Virus record (IMG/VR): IMGVR_UViG_3300044701_003393
Source: an uncultured virus (IMG/VR IMGVR_UViG_3300044701_003393)
Taxonomy: Duplodnaviria > Heunggongvirae > Uroviricota > Caudoviricetes
Reading direction: 5' to 3' (one strand)
Length of the DNA: 64,000 bases
Positions 1-44,639 of the stretch are shown here, one piece after another. Made by a program: the position numbers and the translations under genes. Below the pieces are notes generated by a model. The model made no database searches. It was not told where the DNA came from and was given only the letters and a program-made list of their open reading frames with translations. How positions within the stretch are numbered: position 1 is the stretch's first letter; each line of letters begins with the position of its first letter.

Positions 1-409
1 CCATCCAACGACCAACGAATGGTGAGATATACGTTGCTCCTGCCTTTGAAGCAAGTATTGCTTGTGCTACAGAGAACACCAGAGTTACATTTGTTTTGAT
101 ACCTTGCTTTGATAAGAAGTTACACGCTTTCAGTCCTTCTACAGTACAAGGAACTTTGATTGTAACTGCTGGTGCAATTGAGTAATACTTTTGTGCTTGT
201 GAAAGCATTTCCTCTGCTTCATCTGCGACAACTTCTGCGGAAATGCTTTCTAACTCTGGAAATGCTTGTGATATATTTTCGATAACTTCTTTTAATTGTC
301 TTCCACTTTTAAGAATCAAAGTGGGATTTGTGGTGACTCCATCCAATAGTCCAGTATCATATGCTGAACCAATTAACGAAACATCTGCTGTGTCTAAAAA
401 GATCTTCAT
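1..409 (-). CDS. talC: Transaldolase (TalC/FSA family), N-terminal part; continues past the window edge
   Basis: Manual translation from ATG at 409: MKIFLDTAD...GVTTNPTLI...IKVPCT...NVTLVFS...TYISPFVGR, the TalC motifs. Not in the ORF track because it is truncated. Confidence 0.95.
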
Positions 410-8819: not shown

Positions 8820-8868
8820 TTTTCGTTAAAGGGTAAGTAAAAGTCCAGGGGGTTCTGGATGTTACAAT

Positions 8869-8940
8869 ATTCCCCACACCACCCTCCAGTGTGGGTATGA
8901 GAGACGTGATTTACCCTCCCATAGGTCTCGGTTAACGGGA
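8869..8940 (-). ncRNA. PhotoRC-II-like cis-regulatory RNA
   Basis: ACCGAGACCTATGGGAGGGTAAATCACGTCTCTCATACCCACACTGGAGGGTGGTGTGGG in the psbA 5' UTR; family recognised from memory, needs Rfam confirmation. Confidence 0.7.
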
Positions 8941-8983
8941 GCACAAAGATTAAGAACCTGTTACATTTCTTAACCCGTTGATG

Positions 8984-32328: not shown

Positions 32329-32339
32329 AATAATTAATT

Positions 32340-32436
32340 CAGGCTCGCCACCAATTCTTTAACTGGAAATTGGAAACCAGGCGGAGAAAGAATTCCCCAT
32401 CCGCACCACCAATTCTTGAGAGAAATTGGAAACTCA
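32340..32436 (-). ncRNA. manA/wcaG-like cyanophage structured RNA, 3' modules
   Basis: Two repeated GTTTCCAATTTC...AAGAATTGGTGGYG modules around a GCGGA...TCCGC hairpin; family recalled, not searched. Confidence 0.65.
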
Positions 32437-32631
32437 GAAAGACATTTTTTTAGAAAGTCTCTCAATAAGATTATTAACCTTTGCTTCTAAAGCAGAAAGT
32501 CTATCTTCATCAATATTATCTGAACTAGAATCGCTGAACTTTTCTTCAAGATTTTGAAGACGAGTCTCAACACTTTTATCGTATTCGGACATATAAGGTT
32601 TATCCGAAGATGTTGATTTTTTAACTGTCAT
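32434..32631 (-). CDS. Hypothetical coiled-coil protein
   Basis: 65-aa ORF. Confidence 0.65.
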   Translation of the reverse strand: MTVKKSTSSDKPYMSEYDKSVETRLQNLEEKFSDSSSDNIDEDRLSALEAKVNNLIERLSKKMSF

Positions 32632-33494: not shown

Positions 33495-33567
33495 TGCTGG
33501 TTGTCGGGATCGAACCGACCTATCTTGCCTTATGAGGGCAGTGCTTTCGCCAGAGAGCTAAACCAGC
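33495..33567 (-). tRNA. tRNA with CAT anticodon (Met or Ile2)
   Basis: GCTGGTT...AACCAGC-A cloverleaf; loop CT-CAT-AA; GGTTCGATCC T arm. Confidence 0.88.
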
Positions 33568-33977
33568 GTTTGTAAAAACTCTCCCCAACTATCACCATAA
33601 TGTAATATATGATGGCAGTTATGACAAAGAAGATCACATTTATCTACTTCTTCTTTGATAGTGTCCCATTTCCTATTAGCAAAAGATCTTCCATCAAGTT
33701 TTAATTCTTTTTGAGAAGGATCTCTATGATGAAAGCATAGAGTTGCTGGCCTATCTTCACCACAAGTTTGACACTTAGCACCTTTATATTGAAGTGCTTT
33801 CCATTTATTGGAATATGCACGTTCTTTTTGTTCAGTATAAGTGTTTCTGTTCATAACACAAGGATCATTTCTATATCTCCATTTCATTCGGCAAGTTTCA
33901 TTACAATAGAGTTTTGCTCTTCCACCTTTTCGTGGATGTTGTTCAACTTCTTTACCGCAGGATTTACAGATAATCAT
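33558..33977 (-). mobile_element. HNH-type homing endonuclease in the tRNA region
   Basis: CQTCG...CFHHRDP...CDLLCHNCH; TATAAATA late promoter at 34004-34011. Confidence 0.75.
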
Positions 33978-34176
33978 TTTGGTTATGAACGTATACATAC
34001 ACCTATTTATAATAAATGTATGTTGGAGGAGAGATCCATACAGTGAAACAGAAGCGCAATACAAGTCATAGGTCTGTTTCGCACCGACTTGCAGCTGGGG
34101 TTTTTCACTCTCCTTTTTTCAAGTAGGTTTTCTGTTGCTTATCCTAAAAAACCCACTACAAAATGGATAAGCAAAG

Positions 34177-34248
34177 TAGGACTGCTGAGACTTGAACTCA
34201 GTTCACACCGTTATAAGCAGTGGGCCTTAACCCATAGGCGACAGTCCC
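34177..34248 (-). tRNA. tRNA-Ile (TAT)
   Basis: CACTG-CT-TAT-AA-CGGTG anticodon arm; full cloverleaf. Confidence 0.9.
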
Positions 34249-34287
34249 TTAAGACCAGATCTATAGTAGCGGACCTGGAACGCTCTG

Positions 34288-34521
34288 TCAAGACCCTTCT
34301 TCGTGGTCTGTGTGAATCTTGACTATCTCTTCAAGATCCACATTTGCTTCGTTACATATACTAACCACTTCTTTGTAAGGAACCATTACTGCATTTCCGT
34401 GTTGACTTTTGATGAGTAGTGTCTCACCGCTTTCTACTCTATTCATAAGGTTATCAAAATCTGCTTGAAACTCTTCAATTGTAAAGGATGGAAGTTTTTC
34501 GATTTCTGGATTCATTTTCAT
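34288..34521 (-). CDS. Hypothetical protein (Phd-like N-terminus)
   Basis: FTIEEFQADFDNLMNRVESGE...IK. Confidence 0.6.
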   Translation of the reverse strand: MKMNPEIEKLPSFTIEEFQADFDNLMNRVESGETLLIKSQHGNAVMVPYKEVVSICNEANVDLEEIVKIHTDHEEGS

Positions 34522-34537
34522 AAAGTGATTTTATGAG

Positions 34538-34611
34538 TCCGAGTTGCAGGATTCGAACCTGCGACCCTCTGCTCCCAAAGCAGATGCGCTACCAAACTGC
34601 GCTAAACCCGG
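34538..34611 (-). tRNA. tRNA-Pro (TGG)
   Basis: TCTGC-TT-TGG-GA-GCAGA anticodon arm. Confidence 0.92.
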
Positions 34612-36280: not shown

Positions 36281-36353
36281 TCCTCTGTCTAGGAATCGAA
36301 CCTAGTTTCCAAGTGCATTGTCTGCCTGTCCTTACCAATAGACTACCAGAGGA
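36281..36353 (-). ncRNA. tRNA-like RNA with a non-canonical anticodon arm
   Basis: TCCTCTG/CAGAGGA acceptor, D loop TGGTAA, CTAGG-TTCGATT-CCTAG T arm; no 5-bp/7-nt anticodon arm. Confidence 0.65.
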
Positions 36354-36588
36354 TGTGGTAGGTGTTGGGGACTTTACCTATGTCCCCACTCTTTACATTC
36401 ACCCAAGCACCAGTTTAAACATCGACCTGGGGAGAGGTTTTGGCACCTACGAAGGTTTCCAATAGCCGTTCTTATCTCCCATAAGGAAGATGTAGGTATC
36501 GAACCTACAAAGGACAGTCCCTAACGGAACTGCTGGGAATTCCACCCAGAACCAATATGAAAGAATCGGACATTTCCAACCCTTTCAA

Positions 36589-36876: not shown

Positions 36877-36960
36877 AAGATGGAGTAAGTGTGATATACC
36901 TCATAAGGATATAACAGAGACTTACTCTCTATTACTTTTATATATGGAGATAAACTCCAA

Positions 36961-43668: not shown

Positions 43669-44639
43669 ATTTTCTTCCAAGTAGTAAATTTTAGTTTTGC
43701 TTCTAATCCAGAATAAGTATTTAATTCTATCACAGACTGAACGTCCAGTCCAGATAGTACCATCTCATTAATGTCTTTCTCTTTTATTGATGAAGGCCAG
43801 ACAACGACCCTTTCTCCTCTGTCAATAACGCGGGAGATTCTTGAATGGATTTCTGCATTACGTGGTTCGTTATCGTAAATCCAAACACACCTGTCAATAC
43901 CCCACTTACTAACATCACCATCAGCTCCACATAAAGCAATCGCGTTGCGAATGAATGTTGAGTCAAATGGACCTTCGGTGATGTAGACAGTTTCAGTTTT
44001 TTGTATTTCATCGAGACCATAGATTTTTGGGGCATCATCATTTAACATCACGGTGATATATTTAATCTTATTTGGACCAAGTGCTCTTCCTTGAAATCCG
44101 ACTAGAGTATTTTGATAGAACAAAGGAATAATAATCCTTGGTTCATCTCTTTCTGTGCTGTCGAATGTTTGTTGGAGAGAATTAGTCCACTCCTTAAATT
44201 TGTCGGTATAATAAAATTTATCCGGATTTAATTTTCTCTTTTCTAAGTAAGATTTTGCTATGGAATTCTCAGATGCTTTCGGTAAATCTAACTTAGGTTT
44301 AAACTTCGGTGCTTCGAAATTAAATTTCGGTTCATCTACAATAAAGTTTTTACCAGTATTTCCATCTTTAAATTTTTCGAATGTATATTGTTTGTAAATT
44401 ACTGGATCTAATTGTTTGAGAAAATTATTAAAGGAAATATTAAGTCCGCAATTATGACACTTAAAGTTTGTATTACTTTTGACTTGATACAAATATCCCC
44501 GTGCTTTATTCTTATTCTTCTGCGAGTCTCCACAAATAGGGCAGCGAAAGTTGTAGAGATTGTGCTTTACTTTCTTAAACTTTTGAAATCGCGCAGAAAT
44601 CAAATTGATGTACTTTACATCAACAAAGTCCATAATCAA
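43665..44639 (-). CDS. gp61: DNA primase (T4 gp61-like)
   Basis: RCPICGDS..CHNC zinc finger; EGPFDS; DNEPRN. Confidence 0.95.
   Translation of the reverse strand: MIMDFVDVKYINLISARFQKFKKVKHNLYNFRCPICGDSQKNKNKARGYLYQVKSNTNFKCHNCGLNISFNNFLKQLDPVIYKQYTFEKFKDGNTGKNFIVDEPKFNFEAPKFKPKLDLPKASENSIAKSYLEKRKLNPDKFYYTDKFKEWTNSLQQTFDSTERDEPRIIIPLFYQNTLVGFQGRALGPNKIKYITVMLNDDAPKIYGLDEIQKTETVYITEGPFDSTFIRNAIALCGADGDVSKWGIDRCVWIYDNEPRNAEIHSRISRVIDRGERVVVWPSSIKEKDINEMVLSGLDVQSVIELNTYSGLEAKLKFTTWKKI

Follow-up and report, generated by a model that had tools for sequence, protein, structure and literature searches.

Two-pseudoknot RNA predicted in a tRNA-gene slot of T4-like cyanophages

Which genetic unit fills the space between tRNA-Ile(UAU) and an HNH homing-endonuclease gene in the tRNA array of an uncultured T4-like cyanophage? 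The window analyzed here is the whole 64,000-nt stretch of the IMG/VR virus record IMGVR_UViG_3300044701_003393, and the unit in question, from here on the element, is a 148-nt block on its minus strand. An initial annotation, made from the letters alone, had described this block as two tandem pseudoknots and as an undescribed RNA of about 150 nt linked to the tRNA, and had suggested that it might block a nuclease, be catalytic or serve as a decoy. Compensatory conservation, constant placement in tRNA arrays, the lack of an Rfam match and the lack of a description in the papers searched support an undescribed RNA linked to the tRNA. Comparative analysis indicates that the element is a real and conserved gene for a structured RNA that no catalogue lists, and that it forms a new family of a known but unexplained kind, the small RNAs of phage tRNA clusters.

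The initial annotation had proposed five helices, and each of them was found on the minus strand at the position claimed for it, including GAAACAGA (34080-34073) with UCUGUUUC (34052-34045), which crosses helix P4 (Table 1). We searched directly for the best pair of crossing helices and scored the outcome against 1000 dinucleotide-preserving shuffles. Domain 1 gave (10, 22), reached by 0 of the 1000 shuffles, and the interior of domain 2 gave (8, 17), reached by 1 of 1000. Chance is an unlikely source of the crossing helices, because the lengths observed rarely arise in shuffles. The minimum-energy fold of 156 nt was mildly better than that of shuffles (z = -2.09, 5 of 200); this modest value is expected, since nested folding cannot use crossing helices.

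To collect homologues, IMG/VR and metagenome contigs were scanned with exact patterns, and true copies were sorted from chance pattern matches by blastn and motif extraction. The corrected metagenome pattern scan yielded 24 loci. Because whole collections were scanned by exact pattern only, diversity is under-sampled, above all in S2 and in the divergent clade 2 described below. Thirty-one distinct full-length copies from viral and metagenome contigs, the copy of the window included, make up alignment A1, which has 160 columns and a mean column identity of 88%. Covariation in the crossing helices, a check named in the initial annotation, was present: the homologues keep the helices, and double changes exceed those in shuffles. 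The helices exactly as first drawn were paired in 95.0% of the cells of the 31 homologues, and 11 of their 43 pairs were changed on both sides, compared to 2.7 ± 1.1 in shuffles (0 of 500). When the 3' partner was slid by 1-3 columns, only 42-50% were paired. RNAalifold, which is blind to pseudoknots, recovered S1, P3 and P4 and added an extension of P4 (columns 92-94 with 104-106), all three pairs of which are doubly changed. Covariation thereby corrected one detail, as the last pair of GAAACAGA/UCUGUUUC gives way to this 3-bp extension. The refined fold was paired in 98.4% of the cells (slid controls, 40-52%). Double changes affect 14 of its 43 pairs, compared to 3.0 ± 1.3 in shuffles (0 of 500). 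All six helices, the P4 extension counted, hold at least one double change.

Table 1. The element, its helices and neighboring features. Double changes refer to the 31 sequences of alignment A1; clade 2 comprises S-CREM1 and L341.
Feature	Position	Strand	Sequence or pairing	Basis	Pairs changed on both sides	Clade 2 counterpart
Whole element, two-domain structured RNA, 148 nt	34027..34174	minus		covariance model R1, 188.9 bits on 34024-34176		
S1, domain 1	34135..34174	minus	UUGCUUAUCC 34174-34165 with GGAUAAGCAA 34144-34135	99.6% of cells paired	1/9, plus one column pair C-G 10 / U-G 12 / U-A 9; a C-G to U-A change in another	ACGUCAU/AUGACGU (S-CREM1); ACAUUCUUC/GAAGAAUGU (L341)
S2, domain 1, crosses S1	34122..34157	minus	AGUGGGUUUU 34157-34148 with AAAACCUACU 34131-34122	100% of cells paired over 9 pairs	1/9, G-C to A-U, locus L324 only	CCAGUUA/UAACUGG, crosses S1, same place
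Linker joining domains 1 and 2	34115..34121	minus	UGAAAAA	almost invariant in alignment A1		
P3, closes domain 2	34027..34114	minus	AGGAGAG 34114-34108 with CUCUCCU 34033-34027, 7 bp	99.5% of cells paired	2/7	GGGGAGGG/CCCCUCCC, 8 bp
P4	34060..34093	minus	UGCAAGUC 34093-34086 with GACUUGUA 34067-34060	predicted independently by RNAalifold	3/8	CGCAAGUC/GACUUGUG
P4 extension, 3 bp		minus	GGU 34085-34083 with ACC 34073-34071; UAU bulge 34070-34068	RNAalifold and covariation	3/3	GAU/AUC
P5, crosses P4 (refined)	34045..34080	minus	34080-34074 with 34051-34045; 5' strand within P4 hairpin loop	97.7% of cells paired	4/7	GGAGUAG/CUACUUC, read by eye
Sigma-70-like promoter before tRNA-Ile (predicted)	34263..34291	minus	TTGACA, 17-nt spacer, TACTAT	consensus scan, 10/12 matches		
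tRNA-Ile(UAU), upstream neighbor of element, no encoded CCA	34176..34248	minus		ARAGORN; Rfam tRNA, 52.2 bits		
Late-promoter-like motif (T4 type), left edge of HNH cassette, outside the RNA	34004..34011	minus	TATAAATA	read from sequence		
HNH homing-endonuclease open reading frame, 139 aa, between element and tRNA-Met	33558..33977	minus		PHROG phrog_2255, E 6.3e-23		
tRNA-Met(CAU), directly 3' of element in most relatives	33495..33567	minus		ARAGORN		

In the resulting fold, domain 2 is a classical H-type pseudoknot with a UAU bulge, enclosed by the 7-bp helix P3. It has an 11-bp stem, a first loop of 2 nt, no second loop, a second stem of 7 bp and a third loop of 7-12 nt. Domain 1 is a less classical knot, in which two helices of 9-10 bp each cross and the loops measure 7, 3-4 and 3-5 nt; nine pairs of S1 are conserved, and a tenth is present in 10 of the 31 sequences. 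Loops and joining strands are almost invariant in A1, and the homologues differ by indels of 1-4 nt. The two strands of P3 are purine-rich and pyrimidine-rich, respectively, and this asymmetry is kept in every variant, clade 2 included. The 5' strand of P3 together with the preceding A's (34108-34116) reads AAGGAGAG, which resembles a Shine-Dalgarno sequence, and 34027-34033 is its pyrimidine complement. A real ribosome-binding site is unlikely at this position, since the next GUG is just 1 nt away. The idea that the 3' strand of S1 carries an AUA codon for tRNA-Ile(UAU) was dropped, as 22 of the 31 sequences have a G at that position.

More distant relatives were found in one cultured phage and one IMG/VR contig. 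When the element with its flanks was compared by blastn with 50,697 phage records, the matches fell into the tRNA-Ile part and the start of the downstream reading frame, and none into the element. A loose blastn search of the same records with the element alone returned 49 nt in S-CREM1; apart from this, six records of Lactococcus and Shewanella phages gave matches of 21-28 nt at E 0.5. In S-CREM1, a cultured estuarine cyanophage, tRNA-Asp and tRNA-Glu are separated by a gap of 175 nt without annotation, into which the match falls; the copy there occupies 44179-44328 of OP535465.1. R1, a covariance model built from A1, covers this gap end to end (39.8 bits, E 1.7e-5). It also matched the IMG/VR contig L341 with 37.3 bits, in the same slot between tRNA-Asp and tRNA-Glu. 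As read from their sequences, these two members of clade 2 keep every helix and both crossing topologies with different letters (Table 1). The unbiased crossing-helix search recovered S1 and S2 of clade 2, with (7, 14) reached by 5 and (6, 15) by 54 of 1000 shuffles. In the interior of domain 2 it preferred another, G-U-rich pairing, and P5 of clade 2 is therefore a reading by eye. Domain 1 thus appears to have been rebuilt with a new sequence in the same topology, and this is the strongest evidence for S2 being real. The sequences of P4, the bulge and L3 are retained between the clades. P3, the terminal helix, is 1 bp longer in clade 2 (8 bp) than in clade 1 (7 bp). It is followed by ACCA in both clade-2 sequences and by UCCA in 4 of the 31 clade-1 copies; with so few of the latter, mimicry of a CCA end was judged a weak candidate. 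An inner extension of P3 was also dropped: S-CREM1 offers 6 bp by eye (UCUUGC/GCGAGA), but the clade-1 candidate, CAG/CUG, does not covary.

Blastn with the S-CREM1 copy found S-CREM1 itself only among the phage records, and a scan with a clade-2-specific pattern led to a single IMG/VR contig, the one already found. A match of 17 bits in S-PM2, not near any tRNA, was discarded. In some copies of both clades, the upstream tRNA and domain 1 are separated by an additional hairpin (L313, L315, L324, L326 and L328, 27-28 nt before the element; L333, 608-631; L341, approximately 245-287). It reads GCUAUUCGC...GCGAAUAGC in clade 1 and GGAGAU...AUCUCC in S-CREM1, and is a longer two-part stem in L341.

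Conservation of S1 and S2 could also arise if the two were mutually exclusive hairpins of a conformational switch. The RNA would then be real, and only its first pseudoknot, 'PK1' of the initial annotation, misdescribed. We consider this unlikely, although the energetics of the window sequence lend it some support: folds with S1 only and with S2 only reach -12.0 and -8.8 kcal/mol, respectively, and the nested minimum is -13.2 kcal/mol. The single-sequence minimum-energy fold takes S2, while the alignment fold takes S1. Moreover, the loop that crosses the 9-10 bp of S1 has only 3-5 nt in clade 1, which is tight by the usual rules of pseudoknot geometry, on which any such reasoning from loop length rests. 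Covariation methods cannot tell helices that form at once from helices that form in turn. Against a switch, both helices are 99.6-100% paired in the 31 sequences, and clade 2, with a crossing loop of 5-9 nt, has both of them rebuilt from new sequence without a change in crossing order. In addition, a strand of 3-5 nt lies between S2 and the 3' strand of S1, so that coaxial stacking of the two helices is not required.

The genomic neighborhood of the element was examined next to its fold. ARAGORN placed ten tRNA genes in the window, all on the minus strand, and none of the window tRNAs encodes CCA. Among named phages, T4-like Synechococcus phages are the nearest relatives of the window, above all the freshwater-reservoir phage S-SRM01, and just 8% of an 8-kb query was covered; the IMG/VR record G001 is 100% identical over 821 nt spanning the element region. 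The distance of 2 nt between the tRNA and the start of the element, as claimed initially, holds if the discriminator A34177 is the last base of tRNA-Ile, as it is according to Rfam; ARAGORN puts the end at 34176. For a wider view we tabulated the 36 distinct clade-1 copies with enough flanking sequence, comprising the 31 full-length copies, 4 whose second domain is a different one and 1 that consists of domain 1 alone; the truncated L164 was left out. tRNA-Ile(UAU) lies upstream in 24 of the 36, at a distance of 0-2 nt in 20 and of 27-28 nt, behind the extra hairpin, in 4. Eight copies have a promoter-like TTGRCA-16..18-TAWRAT directly upstream. A tRNA follows within 5 nt in 30 copies, namely tRNA-Met(CAU) in 20 (3-5 nt), tRNA-Gly(UCC) in 9 (4-5 nt) and tRNA-Leu(UAA) in 1. 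The remaining copies are followed by a late-promoter-like motif and an HNH gene (5) or by another promoter (1).

The element thus uses two alternative slots of the tRNA array. Its distance to its neighbors is the same few nucleotides that separate tRNAs, and the promoters are of the kind that head neighboring tRNAs. Each record has one copy, as seen in the window and in all six records that were searched whole (fragments, 6-58% complete). In relatives without the element, tRNA-Ile and tRNA-Met are 4 nt (RN05-S) or 1 nt (DSL-LC03) apart, indicating that the element is a discrete unit the size of an insert. One copy, represented by L217 and L327, has no tRNA callable by ARAGORN within approximately 400 nt on either side. 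Positions 1-851 of L327 (minus strand) form a row of small non-coding units, consisting of a unit of about 85 nt closed by CUCCCG/CGGGAG, the element and a further structured stretch. The first and third units are each headed by a near-identical TTGACA-17-TATGAT promoter. The promoter-like site of the element itself has a collapsed 6-nt spacer, and this copy is therefore probably read from the promoter one unit upstream.

The two domains do not always travel together. A domain 1 approximately 93% identical to that of the window also occurs with another, shorter second domain of 55 nt before tRNA-Gly (type B; L111 511-629, L146, L204 and L310, 4 distinct copies), which is closed by the stem GAGAAAAG/CUUUUCUU. 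In type C, domain 1 alone stands directly before tRNA-Leu(UAA) in three large contigs that represent 1 distinct copy (L119 587-652). The domains are therefore exchangeable modules.

Such modularity raises the possibility that the element acts in cis, as a leader or spacer of the tRNA operon. Domain 1 would shield the 5' end of the pre-tRNA or insulate tRNA folding, domain 2 would be a tRNA-sized stand-in removed by RNase P, and the pieces would be discarded. Domain 1 is indeed the constant part in clade 1, followed by domain 2 of type A (31 copies), the 55-nt domain (4) or tRNA-Leu(UAA) (1). In 8 of the 36 copies it begins a few nucleotides after a promoter-like -10 box and would thus form the 5' end of a primary transcript that continues into tRNA-Gly. 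The 7 bp of P3 resemble an acceptor stem, and the UUGAAAA(A) linker in front of P3 recurs in the form with domain 1 only, where it stands before the acceptor stem of tRNA-Leu; both clade-2 sequences have their ACCA behind P3. Nevertheless, we give this explanation a small share of the probability. The invariant loops of clade 1 and the retention of P4, bulge and L3 between the clades exceed the needs of a passive spacer. Twenty-four of the 36 copies are internal to a transcript, behind tRNA-Ile, where a cap-like role at the 5' end does not apply, and the L217/L327 copy adjoins no tRNA that ARAGORN can call. The Rfam tRNA model is silent on domain 2 at E ≤ 10, a T-loop motif is missing, and CCA follows P3 in just 4 of the 31 clade-1 copies.

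In the window the element is followed by a gene cassette. Its left edge is the motif TATAAATA, which we take to be of the T4 late-promoter type, and which also precedes the HNH gene of S-SRM01. A Pfam search of the 139-aa HNH reading frame gave nothing at E ≤ 0.01. The last 10 nt of this frame overlap the 5' end of tRNA-Met, i.e., the cassette is inserted at the 5' edge of tRNA-Met. This location parallels that of segB beside tRNA-Ile in the tRNA cluster of T4. The cassette recurs in S-SRM01 with 89.6% identity over 530 nt (locus L001, 1501-2028), directly behind tRNA-Ile and without the element, and the HNH gene is absent behind 31 of the 36 copies of the element. Element and HNH gene are therefore independent. 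This bears on the notion that the element is part of the HNH cassette, as a 5' untranslated region or target site, or else a pair of decayed, functionless tRNA genes. What speaks for it is the position of the element directly upstream of TATAAATA and the HNH frame in the window, and its length of 148 nt, about that of two tRNAs. With 31 of 36 copies free of an HNH gene, a cassette in S-SRM01 free of the element, nothing found in the element by ARAGORN or the Rfam tRNA model, and compensatory changes and helix-preserving divergence between clades that are not expected of decaying DNA, this notion is highly improbable.

Searches for a known identity of the element were negative. At gathering thresholds, Rfam 15 returned 11 matches in the whole window, which are nine tRNAs, wcaG and PhotoRC-II, and none of them lies in the element. 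The Rfam check named in the initial annotation was thus run, and no Rfam 15 family matches the element. At E ≤ 10, the best non-tRNA matches in 33900-34300 scored 10-20 bits versus thresholds of 34-95, and the S-CREM1 copy produced one match of 13.2 bits versus a threshold of 40. Within 34027-34174, neither ARAGORN nor RF00005 at E ≤ 10 detected a tRNA, and the element contains no T-loop motif. No terminator-like site was found on the minus strand between 33400 and 34700. S2 is followed by UUGAAAAA and P3 by UCCA; there are no U runs and so no intrinsic-terminator pattern. A small open reading frame is unlikely, since the only frames, of 30-36 codons (such as the 33-aa GTG frame at 34007-34108), run out of the conserved block and are broken by the indels of 1-4 nt. 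In cellular genomes, the domain-2 core, searched as one exact pattern, occurred in 23 contigs of unrelated bacteria and archaea, none of which was confirmed by R1 (0 of 23; best 13.9 bits, E 0.17). We found no description of the element in the papers searched. A survey of structured RNAs in IMG/VR lists 10,006 candidate structures (PMC10690425) and may include it among them. In the S-CREM1 genome paper, non-coding RNAs come from Rfam and tRNAscan only, and Table 4 opens with abiF, wcaG and manA.

Pseudoknotted RNAs directly downstream of phage tRNA genes have a precedent in the theta ribozymes, which PMC10879173 presents as ribozymes of the hepatitis delta virus (HDV) type next to the tRNAs of gut phages. 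We asked whether the element could likewise be a self-cleaving ribozyme that matures neighboring tRNA ends. It is rich in pseudoknots and starts 2 nt after the discriminator of tRNA-Ile, and 20 of the 36 copies lie 0-2 nt after a tRNA. However, the element is about three times longer than theta ribozymes, and none of the ribozyme families of Rfam 15 matches it at E ≤ 10. An HDV-like mapping of domain 1 fails. The HDV-type fold is a nested double pseudoknot with P1, P1.1 and P2 that has a P3/L3 hairpin between the 5' strand of P2 and the 3' strand of P1; in domain 1 the corresponding stretch, between S2 and S1, has only 3-4 nt and leaves no room for this hairpin. Eight copies stand behind a promoter instead of a tRNA and one has no adjacent tRNA callable by ARAGORN, which argues against a ribozyme that purely cleaves tRNA trailers. 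Furthermore, host RNase P and 3'-end processing serve the other nine tRNAs of the window, which have no such neighbor. A ribozyme of this kind is accordingly improbable.

The closest parallel is found in T4 itself. Its cluster has the order tRNA-Ile, segB homing endonuclease, tRNA-Arg, rnaD (119 nt) and rnaC (139 nt), each flush with its neighbor (spacers of 1 and 6 nt). Like RNA C and RNA D of T4, the element is a small non-tRNA RNA within a T4-type tRNA cluster, flush with tRNAs and with a homing-endonuclease gene nearby. RNA C and RNA D accumulate as stable RNAs according to the older literature, whereas the element is known here from its sequence. The element has two pseudoknots and no T-arm; T4 rnaC, in contrast, has a canonical T-arm sequence and a nested fold. 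In the T4 tRNA region, R1 with filters off found no match at the strand and coordinates of rnaC and rnaD, and its best minus-strand match (15.1 bits) lies in a protein gene. The element is an analogue of the two T4 RNAs and not a homologue. The roles of RNA C (species 1) and RNA D (species 2) are left unexplained in PMC3014915.

Other structured RNAs share single traits with the element. The 3' tRNA-like structures of plant RNA viruses have upstream pseudoknot domains; their acceptor arm is itself a pseudoknot, and the RNA ends the genome. The element resembles them in its tandem pseudoknots beside or forming a tRNA-sized module, and in its terminal helix of 7-8 bp with ACCA in both clade-2 sequences. 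It differs in that this helix is a plain stem, that CCA is found in 4 of 31 clade-1 copies and that domain 2 is not scored by the Rfam tRNA model. GOLLD and ROOL are large ornate RNAs of phages and prophages without an established function, often located beside tRNA genes. They have in common with the element that they are structured RNAs beside phage tRNA genes, but they are 4-6 times larger, and their Rfam models do not match it. The cyanophage motifs wcaG, manA and PhotoRC-II are located in 5' untranslated regions of protein genes and thought to be cis-regulatory (Weinberg et al. 2010, PMC2864571). Like them, the element is a structured RNA of T4-like cyanophages found by comparative genomics; unlike them, it occupies a tRNA slot, has no open reading frame downstream in 31 of 36 copies and does not match their models.

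Taking fold and placement together, we favor, with reasonable but far from complete confidence, an independent stable RNA that is released by tRNA processing and sits in a tRNA-gene slot of the T4-like cyanophage array. The element would be transcribed together with neighboring tRNAs from sigma-70-type promoters and, in the window, would share a transcript with tRNA-Ile(UAU). This cotranscription is plausible, as no terminator-like site lies on the minus strand between the predicted promoter at 34291-34263, the likely origin of the transcript with the element, and tRNA-Met. Host tRNA-processing enzymes would then release the RNA. Since no CCA is encoded, an RNase Z-type cut after the discriminator of the upstream tRNA may generate a 5' end 2 nt before S1; in cyanobacteria, tRNAs without encoded CCA go with 3' cutting of the RNase Z type. 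On the other side, RNase P would process the 5' end of the tRNA that follows and so leave a 3' end 3-5 nt after P3. Cuts at the flanking tRNAs would thus lock both ends of the RNA in helices, the 5' end in S1 and the 3' end in P3. By analogy with RNA C and RNA D of T4, an RNA with helix-locked ends and two compact pseudoknot domains should resist end-dependent nucleases and accumulate.

Several observations weigh against such an independent RNA. Within clade 1, the support for S2 comes from the single sequence L324, and the other eight S2 pairs never vary. Clade 1 is also shallow (88% identity), and part of its apparent conservation may reflect recent common descent or lateral spread. The occurrence of domain 1 with the other second domain (4 copies) or before tRNA-Leu (1 copy) fits a modular leader equally well. 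At E ≤ 0.05, R1 found no match in seven other cultured cyanophages (S-SRM01, RN05-S, DSL-LC03, S-H68 as a partial record, S-PM2, S-CRM01 and S-SCSM1), indicating that the RNA is dispensable for the group. Finally, the metatranscriptome contigs that cover 33923-34097 and 33916-34058, at a depth of 2-5 and with 0 differences, leave the 5' half of the element uncovered, and these low-depth contigs, which reach from the beginning of the HNH gene into the 3' portion of domain 2, could be carried-over DNA. They stem from four riverine metatranscriptome runs examined by contig, among 13 sequencing runs that share small fractions of sequence words with the element region. All exact low-depth pieces together cover 33615-34097 only, and RNA ends are unreadable from contigs. 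High metatranscriptome depth at 34533-34610 belongs to tRNA-Pro of other organisms. The metatranscriptome data support neither expression nor its absence.

If the element is a stable RNA, it would most likely work in trans by way of its shape and its invariant loops, and a protein is the probable binding partner. The near-invariant loops of clade 1 and the sequences of P4, bulge and L3 retained between the clades point to a specific partner. A bolder and rather doubtful version is a phage-made effector whose two nuclease-proof knots bind and disable a host protein, e.g., a tRNA-directed or RNA-processing nuclease of an anti-phage system, or, alternatively, a new class of small ribozyme. Were the effector real, the tRNA array would hold not only spare tRNAs but also an RNA inhibitor of the enzyme that attacks them.

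To the unexplained tRNA-cluster RNAs of the T4 era, the element adds a well-supported family from freshwater and estuarine cyanophages, whose defined fold has two pseudoknots and 14 covarying pairs. Its unannotated member in the cultured pair S-CREM1 / Synechococcus sp. CB0101 makes the role of tRNA-cluster RNAs directly testable, and for structural work the element is a natural RNA of small size with a double pseudoknot. It also shows that a gap in a phage tRNA array should not be taken for a spacer.

Two further gaps of this array, both on the minus strand, fold well. The unannotated 235-nt gap between tRNA-Asn and tRNA-His (36353-36587) reaches -86.5 kcal/mol (z -3.88, 0 of 200 shuffles) and holds a hairpin that resembles a T-arm, GUAGGUUCGAUACCUAC; this gap may encode a further RNA of the array, either a non-tRNA or a degenerate tRNA. 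Between tRNA-Arg(UCU) and tRNA-Leu(UAG), a gap of 83 nt (36877-36959) folds better than most shuffles (z -2.79, 4 of 200). The window also contains two known cyanophage motifs identified by Rfam on the minus strand, a wcaG RNA at 32337-32437 (95 bits) and a PhotoRC-II RNA at 8859-8953 (80.1 bits).

Immediately upstream of the tRNA-Ile promoter, a 77-aa open reading frame (34288-34521, minus strand) resembles Phd/YefM antitoxins (PF02604, 23.2 bits versus a cut-off of 29.8) and carries the annotation 'prevent host death protein' in relatives. With no toxin gene next to it, the frame seems to encode an orphan antitoxin; a counter-defense theme would accommodate it if the element were indeed an effector. 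tRNA-Ile(UAU) itself is 88-90 nt long with a long extra arm in S-SRM01 and several contigs according to ARAGORN (L001 1410-1499, L014 1604-1691 and L119 500-587), which is unusual for an isoleucine tRNA.

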